Origin: a virus
Lineage: Duplodnaviria > Heunggongvirae > Uroviricota > Caudoviricetes
Virus record (IMG/VR): IMGVR_UViG_2526164693_000012
DNA length: 19,222 bases
Reading direction: 5' to 3' (one strand)
The stretch's first letter is position 1, and each line of letters starts with the position of its first letter. A model generated the notes under the pieces. It saw nothing but the letters and a program-made list of their open reading frames with translations, was not told the DNA's origin and did no database searches. A program made the translations under genes and the position numbers. This document shows, one piece after another, positions 13,240-13,380 of the stretch.

Positions 13240-13380
13240 CTACTGCTTACACTGTAAGAACGCCGCAAACTCCGCTCCCCACAAATTCAGCCGGAACTCA
13301 CACAGTGAACCGTGCAACATCCAGATGGTGAAGATAACCGTCATGCAAATTGTGACGGTGATAAGCGATTTTTGCGACAT
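13240..13380 (-). CDS. hok: Second Hok family type I toxin, 46 aa (HokA-like), absent from the ORF track
   Basis: Manual translation MSQKSLITVTICMTVIFTIWMLHGSLCEFRLNLWGAEFAAFLQCKQ shows one TM segment plus the Hok signature SLCEFR...EFAAF; SD AAGGAG 9 nt upstream; leader shares two sequence blocks with the first hok locus. Confidence 0.6.
   Translation of the reverse strand: MSQKSLITVTICMTVIFTIWMLHGSLCEFRLNLWGAEFAAFLQCKQ

Follow-up and report, generated by a model that had tools for sequence, protein, structure and literature searches.

A second Hok/Gef-family gene of Stx phages 933W and Sp5 lies in a putative hok/sok-like cassette without mok

The gene, its product and its genomic setting

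The stretch of DNA analysed here, referred to as the window, is 19,222 nucleotides long and belongs to a virus of the Caudoviricetes (IMG/VR record IMGVR_UViG_2526164693_000012). On its minus strand, an open reading frame (ORF) for a peptide of 46 amino acids starts with the ATG at 13380 and ends with the TAG at 13242-13240. The encoded peptide is MSQKSLITVTICMTVIFTIWMLHGSLCEFRLNLWGAEFAAFLQCKQ. An earlier note on this DNA had claimed an ORF at 13240-13380, and for the coding sequence including its stop codon these coordinates turned out to be exact. The strong Shine-Dalgarno (SD) sequence mentioned there was found as AAGGAG at 13395..13390 (-), 9 nt before the ATG, and its position is conserved in the family alignment. 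The gene was also correctly located between lom (13613..14347) and an ORF of 133 amino acids (12782..13183).

The peptide has a lysine near the N-terminus (K4) and a transmembrane helix that spans approximately residues 6-24; its C-terminal domain, SLCEFR...AEFAAFLQCKQ, contains two cysteines (C27 and C44). It matches the Pfam profile HOK_GEF (PF01848) with 33.2 bits and an E-value of 4e-8, which is above the gathering score of 22. The alignment spans residues 8-44 of the peptide and positions 6-42 of the 42 profile positions. A match of 85.8 bits was found to PHROG 251 ('MokW-like host killing'), and both profiles bear out the earlier assignment to the Hok/Gef family. Residues C12, T14, L26, C27, E28 and E37 are retained and correspond to C15, T17, L29, C30, E31 and E40 of HokW. 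The published Hok logo features C16, T18, L30, C31, E32 and E41 and either C or Y at position 48, with which C44 of the peptide aligns (10.1101/2025.08.07.668861). The gene differs from hokW, a separate gene for 51 amino acids at 425..580 (+).

In the NCBIfam search, HokA and Hok gave matches below threshold only. The HokA equivalog NF007290 reached 38.4 bits against a cut-off value of 89, indicating that the peptide is HokA-like, but not HokA. No matches were obtained with PADLOC or in a sequence search of the PDB. Based on Pfam, PHROG, the family alignment, dN/dS and the comparison with HokW, the peptide is a predicted small inner-membrane toxin, prophage-borne, and by its sequence, which passes PF01848, the protein is filed as a member of the Hok/Gef family. 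When 45 diverse Hok peptides were tested in a 2026 preprint, 42 were toxic (10.1101/2025.08.07.668861).

The region is 100% identical to the Stx phages 933W, VT2-Sakai (Sp5), Stx2 phage I and many others, and the identical region also occurs in prophages of O157:H7 and other STEC genomes. This identity agrees with Pfam and PHROG 251 in pointing to a prophage-borne Hok-family toxin gene, as the note had proposed. The gene had been regarded as unannotated, which holds for old GenBank phage records, including 933W (AF125520) and Stx2 phage I (AP004402), in which it is missing. It does not hold for RefSeq/PGAP, where exactly this ORF is annotated as WP_000078907.1 ('Hok/Gef family protein'), nor for many newer phage records, which use the names 'MokW-like host killing', 'host toxic membrane protein' or 'prophage host toxic membrane protein'. 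Since the gene is present in current annotation, short-ORF cut-offs no longer miss it, contrary to what had been supposed. As a gene call, the present analysis therefore adds nothing to what RefSeq, PHROGs and several phage records already name. Our literature search found no paper on a second hok gene in Sp5/933W or on WP_000078907. The gene is known to databases and not new, and apparently unstudied so far as this search showed. The preprint lists 1,264 Hok peptides and reports their enrichment in prophages, and it explicitly left mok and sok out of its analysis (10.1101/2025.08.07.668861).

The upstream neighbour lom matches the Pfam profile Ail_Lom with 113 bits. Its intrinsic terminator lies at 13571..13589 (-) and has a T-run that abuts the hok promoter, thereby marking the upstream limit of the cassette in which the gene lies. 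On the other side, the 133-aa ORF on the minus strand is probably annotated 8 codons too long, judging from profile coverage and the SD. The PHROG 610 profile covers only residues 9-133, and the SD sequence GGTGAGAG precedes the ATG at 13159, directly after the 3' element fbi. With this probable start the PHROG 610 gene (12782..13159 (-), 125 amino acids), which encodes a conserved phage protein, lies outside the cassette. The first 8 codons of the longer ORF fall inside the cassette and overlap fbi (GGCACCC). The 'ORF-15c hypothetical protein' of AP004402, an ORF for 81 amino acids on the opposite strand (13437..13682 (+)) that runs across the hok leader and the lom terminator, is almost certainly spurious. 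Two further ORFs of the region were recorded. One (1595..10015 (-), 2,806 amino acids, RefSeq 'LPD38 domain-containing protein') lies downstream of the hok cassette and takes up 8.4 kb of the late region; the other, at 11322..11573 (83 amino acids), is annotated as 'bacteriocin'.

Promoters, RNA elements and the absence of mok

The gene is part of a self-contained cassette of about 375 bp (13564..13172). In copies that are about 80% identical, homology is sharply confined to window positions 13549..13175. The predicted hok promoter (13536..13564 (-)) consists of the -35 box TTGCCC (13564..13559), a spacer of 17 nt and the -10 box TAAATT (13541..13536), followed by 6 nt and the +1 at G13529. 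In homologues with unrelated flanks, TTGC of the -35 box and TA[GAC]A[TAG]T of the -10 box hold their positions. Scanning 13000..13700 with a generic sigma-70 consensus yielded no sites; the hok promoter (8/12 matches) was below the threshold and the predicted antisense promoter was not called. Because of this result the promoters were placed by homology and conservation. The Rfam model RF01794 (sok / hok leader) aligns end to end (1-157) to 13529..13367 (-) with 35.6 bits and an E-value of 2.6e-6, which places the 5' end of the mRNA at G13529. This score is below the gathering score of 59 and the match was seen only in the E-value search. At gathering thresholds, Rfam found the first locus (hokW) only, the leader of which passes the sok model with 113.5 bits.

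The predicted full-length hok mRNA is about 358 nt in length (13172..13529 (-)) and extends from the 5' element tac to just past fbi, as delimited by homology, RNAfold and RNAalifold. Downstream of fbi no obvious terminator was found, and the ribosome binding site of the next gene starts approximately 5 nt later. For the window RNA, RNAfold yielded -155.4 kcal/mol and a z-score of -6.5. A consensus fold was computed with RNAalifold from 15 diverse copies, from the +1 to just past the last conserved base, and its pairs were counted independently. It features 80 pairs in 14 helices. Across the 15 copies 96.5% of the cells are paired, compared to 36-44% with the partners slid, and 20 pairs have changes on both sides, compared to at most 9 in the slid controls. 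None of 500 shuffles reached the observed pairing values.

The tac element (5' GGGUGCC, 13523..13529 (-)) occurs in all of the 18 aligned cassette variants except L020, which is without the 5' leader. Its partner in the full-length mRNA is fbi (GGCACCC, 13175..13181 (-)), at which the homology of the cassette ends. The tac/fbi fold-back comprises helix 1 with 7 conserved pairs and helix 2, in which the tac extension UCG (13520..13518) pairs with 13187..13185. All three pairs of helix 2 are compensatory, with UCG:CGA changed to CGA:UCG in 5-6 sequences. In the minimum free energy structures, the 5' end pairs with the 3' end in 15/15 homologues. Once the 3' tail is gone, tac is predicted to find a new partner in the ucb-like box GGAAAGGCCCC (13471..13481 (-)). 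In the window copy this re-pairing is predicted upon removal of a tail of 37 nt (13208..13172), and the same switch after truncation is predicted in 10 of the 15 homologues (tac partners 54-59).

The expected 3' end of the processed mRNA is a GC-rich stem-loop, GACGGGGAC-GAGA-GUCCCCGUC (13209..13230 (-)), which corresponds to helix 14 of the consensus fold (99.3% paired, 4 compensated pairs). Helix 10 is formed by the segment coding for AEFAAF (13260..13275 (-)) and the hok start region (13380..13365), sequestering the AUG (14 pairs, 97.1% paired). Thermodynamic predictions for truncated and full-length RNA showed no clear opening of the SD and AUG after 3' truncation.

A predicted Sok-like promoter is located on the plus strand at 13386..13415, with the -35 box TTGACT (13386..13391), a spacer of 18 nt and the -10 box TAACCT (13410..13415). 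The complement of this -10 box, AGGTTA, is nearly invariant in the family, and the box is the same as that of sokW (TTGCCT-N17-TAACCT) and at the homologous place. An additional T relative to most homologues, located in GGAGTCAAG (13386..13391 (+), 13388 (-)) of the window copy, changes the -35 box from TTGCTC to the better TTGACT and the spacer from 17 to 18 nt. The predicted Sok-like RNA (13420..13481 (+)) is approximately 60-65 nt in length and consists of a single-stranded 5' tail, a terminator hairpin and UUU. The hairpin has 16 bp (13442..13478), and its RNA is predicted at -35.4 kcal/mol with a z-score of -6.4. The predicted antisense gene converges on hok, and its overlap with the leader lies 30-100 nt upstream of the hok SD.

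In the full-length mRNA, a portion of the antisense target (13417..13429 (-)) is base-paired to the 3' tail (13206..13194); trimming would free this portion. This pairing is helix 7 of the consensus fold, with 10 pairs, 4 of which show compensatory changes. The target tail is the least conserved segment of the leader (65% identity), which is consistent with copy-specific recognition. The predicted duplex energies are -135 and -148 kcal/mol for the cognate pairs and -65 and -47 kcal/mol for the cross pairs with locus 1, and the antisense tail is unrelated to that of sokW. These unrelated tails and weak cross-duplexes suggest that the two loci should be regulated independently.

An ORF overlapping the hok start was not found in any frame in this copy. 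An in-frame TAA is present at 13398..13396 (-), just upstream of the SD, as the earlier note had stated in excluding an in-frame mok extension; an out-of-frame mok of the R1 type is absent too. Among the 63 unique leader and coding sequence modules, none has an in-frame mok extension. The conserved GAGG (13449..13446), which is the homologue of the mok SD, is not followed by a start codon, and all three frames are interrupted by stops before the hok SD is reached. Translational coupling is thereby excluded whatever the start codon. The -1 frame is closed in this copy by the family-invariant UAG at 13409..13411 (-), which is part of the antisense -10 box and lies in this frame rather than in the hok frame because of the extra T in GGAGTCAAG.

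Two candidates for a leader ORF were rejected. A mok-like ORF from a recurrent upstream AUG (GAUGUGG) is not a conserved feature, since its frame varies, Salmonella-type members are without the AUG, and the ORF extends beyond the hok ATG in only 8 of the 63 variants. A mini-ORF of three codons, GUG-NNN-GGU-UAG, lacks an SD and does not occur in the window copy.

At the level of sequence, the 46-aa subfamily as a whole is without a conserved mok, while all other hok elements are retained. As no mok was found, the locus is filed as a hok/sok-like cassette without mok and not as canonical hok/mok/sok. At the first locus (256..580 (+)), the mokW ORF (368..580, 70 amino acids) is in frame with hokW, so that the earlier remark that regulation may differ between the two loci was justified. 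The conserved absence of mok is the sole unusual aspect of the locus.

Spread of the cassette, selection and alternative explanations

Among 5,426 complete E. coli genomes, 1,675 contain DNA matches to the cassette. Each of them carries 1-8 copies, which makes about 2,550 copies in all. A protein search yielded more than 40 full-length homologues of 46 amino acids in E. coli, Shigella, Salmonella, E. albertii and Citrobacter, in which C27, C44 and several further positions are invariant. Copies occupy the slot between lom and the 133-aa gene of Stx phages (L001, L009), the J/tail-fibre slot of lambda-like phages (L011) and the end of P2-like prophages after ogr (P2 ogr/att; L012 and many IMG/VR contigs that end there). 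Others are borne on a plasmid (L014), in the ure/ter island of O157 (L013, 79% identical, a second copy in O157 strains) or in other islands (L010). Such sharp homology limits amid differing flanks are characteristic of an autonomous moron cassette.

A search of genome contigs for related loci returned 7 loci, three of which carry non-enterobacterial labels. These copies (L002, L003 and L005, labelled Xanthomonas pisi, a Planococcaceae MAG and Vagococcus sp.) show 100% and 76% amino acid identity and are likely enterobacterial contamination of the respective assemblies. In the lom/133-aa slot of a prophage of E. coli 2013C_3997_C1 (L009:2064-2453), the leader and the 3' UTR hardly differ from those of the window, in contrast to a strongly diverged hok coding sequence (dS 1.17, dN 0.32; peptide MPQKTIIV...). 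This combination points to recombination within the cassette that swapped the coding part between variants. At the end of an IMG/VR contig (L072:878-1641), two different cassettes of the 46-aa family are arranged in tandem. In the first, tac is at 878 and fbi at 1226; the second begins with tac at 1354, and its hok is at 1501. In eight rare variants (P0003, P0008, P0010, P0013, P0014, P0020, P0021 and P0025) the stop codon is lost, and 13-35 amino acids read from the 3' UTR are added at the C-terminus. None of them has an N-terminal extension.

The median pairwise dN/dS of the ORF is 0.25, a value to be read with the caveat that RNA-structure constraints overlap the coding sequence and could depress dS or dN. 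The length of 46 amino acids is retained in 13 of 15 diverse homologues, and variable sites are distributed over the three codon positions as 30/18/33. The peptide thus appears to be under purifying selection, which implies that it is translated.

These data bear on what the locus does. That the ORF arose by chance in the spacer between lom and the next gene has practically no probability left: nothing speaks for it except that the ORF is small and was missing from early annotations, and the Pfam and PHROG matches, the homologues, the conserved length and the selection on the peptide refute it. An inactive relic would be a more serious explanation. The toxin would never be translated without mok, as is the case for the chromosomal hok loci of E. 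coli K-12, which are disabled, and the cassette would be neutral cargo. This is in line with the lack of mok in all frames of the window copy, with the requirement for mok translation in R1 (PMC9841398), with the extra T that moves the invariant UAG into the -1 frame, and with the loss of the 5' leader in at least one homologue, L020, from which it follows that decay does happen in the family. However, the mok-less state is common to the whole 46-aa subfamily in E. coli, Salmonella, Citrobacter and E. albertii, and the strong SD has the optimal distance from the start codon. Retention of the length, both cysteines, the promoters and the compensated fold, together with the dN/dS found here, is not what a neutral relic would show, and we regard a relic as unlikely.

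Alternatively, RNA could be the main product and the peptide secondary, with the Sok-like RNA or the structured mRNA acting in trans, for example as an anti-addiction module against related hok cassettes elsewhere in the genome. Genomes of E. coli with up to eight copies of the cassette family, O157 strains with their second copy in the ure/ter island, and the existence of tandem cassettes such as L072 speak for such a role. Yet the low conservation of the antisense-target tail argues for copy-specific and not cross-reactive recognition, the cross-duplexes with the other locus of the same phage are weak, and the peptide is under purifying selection. The probability of this explanation is therefore considered to be very small.

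Proposed mechanism and comparison with known systems

Taken together, we consider it probable that the locus is a functional type I toxin-antitoxin moron of the hok/sok type, without mok, between lom and the next gene of the late region. By analogy to hok/sok of R1, the full-length mRNA of about 358 nt, which the tac/fbi pairing closes and in which the start codon is buried by pairing with the AEFAAF-coding segment, would be inert. As in R1, its 3' end would slowly be trimmed back to the stem-loop, which would strip fbi together with the segment that masks the antisense target, after which the 5' end would re-pair with the internal ucb-like box. The short-lived antisense RNA would then bind the processed mRNA and lead to its destruction, again as in R1. 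When antisense synthesis stops upon prophage loss, host shut-off or read-through of the late operon, the toxin would be translated.

With no mok leader ORF, translation must start directly at the hok SD in this model; speculatively, ribosomes may either begin there or use standby binding at the freed GAGG region. Lacking a coupled leader ORF to block, the antisense RNA would have to promote decay of the mRNA and/or prevent its refolding or ribosome standby. This initiation and antisense step is the least certain part of the model. One argument against the model is the requirement for mok in R1, by analogy to which a hok gene without mok might never be translated. Further points against it are that the predictions for truncated RNA show no clear opening of the SD and AUG, that both promoters fall below the sigma-70 consensus scan, that the Rfam score is under the gathering threshold, that fbi has no obvious terminator after it, and that RNA-structure constraints overlap the coding sequence. 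Owing to the co-orientation with the late operon, Q-antiterminated transcription that runs on from lom should provide sense RNA and at the same time occlude the convergent antisense promoter, which predicts a release of Hok late in induction.

In its wider form, the interpretation is that the 46-aa subfamily is a naturally mok-less hok/sok lineage. Its members would translate hok directly from the SD after 3' processing, a Sok-like RNA would exert control through RNase III-type decay, a block of the tac/ucb refolding or occupation of a standby site at the relic GAGG, and Hok would be released at lysis, partly redundant with hokW. We hold this to be possible, at slightly less than an even chance. 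If such a lineage exists, its control logic is unlike the textbook model of mok coupling. Because the widespread subfamily retains all hok RNA elements but mok, which counts as obligatory in R1, it offers a natural test of the need for leader-ORF coupling. Sp5/933W, a Stx2 phage of clinical importance, has two orthogonal Hok cassettes, of which only hokW has been studied.

Among the known systems, hokW-sokW is present in the same phage. The study of Takada et al. (2021) treats only the 51-aa HokW of Sp5; HokW is toxic, sokW RNA was detected by northern blot, and hokW-sokW is a working toxin-antitoxin system that aids lysis (PMC8621323). Deletion of hokW-sokW only halves the release of Sp5 (PMC8621323). 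This weak, two-fold phenotype may reflect redundancy with the second Hok cassette, and partial redundancy, if true, could explain it. Both toxins belong to PHROG 251 and share 37% identity over 35 amino acids, both genes have a leader and a convergent antisense gene, predicted for the present locus, with the -10 box TAACCT, and both are morons outside the essential morphogenesis genes. They differ in that HokW is of the HokC/D type and has mokW, whereas the peptide described here is five residues shorter, HokA-like, with two cysteines and without mok. Furthermore, hokW is on the strand opposite to the late operon and converges on its end, while the present gene is co-oriented with the late operon. 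Experimental work exists for hokW only.

With hok/mok/sok of plasmid R1 (parB), the cassette shares the tac/fbi fold-back, the 3' stem-loop and an internal box for the tac switch (PMC9841398). In R1, mok has 70 codons and is out of frame, with its AUG at 116-118 compared to 174-176 for the hok AUG, and Hok can be made only if mok is translated as far as the hok SD (PMC9841398). Further common features are the GAGG in the antisense-target region, an antisense promoter, predicted here, that overlaps the hok SD region and the same geometry of antisense RNA and SD. The obligatory out-of-frame mok of R1 has no counterpart here, and R1 Hok has 52 amino acids.

HokA of E. coli K-12 (NF007290) is the best-scoring named Hok equivalog, with 50 amino acids compared to 46 here. 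Both peptides have the MxQK N-terminus, the SLCE motif, the (E)xAAFLxCK C-terminus and two cysteines.

For the step that would have to work without mok, tisB/istR-1 provides a mechanistic analogy only. In this system, attributed to work by Darfeuille and colleagues from 2007, ribosome standby reportedly operates and control is said to be exerted far upstream of the ribosome binding site. The peptides are unrelated, and IstR-1 is trans-encoded and divergent. Common to both, as far as the model proposed here applies, are an antisense RNA that pairs well upstream of the toxin SD, the lack of a coupled leader ORF and a processed mRNA as the active form.
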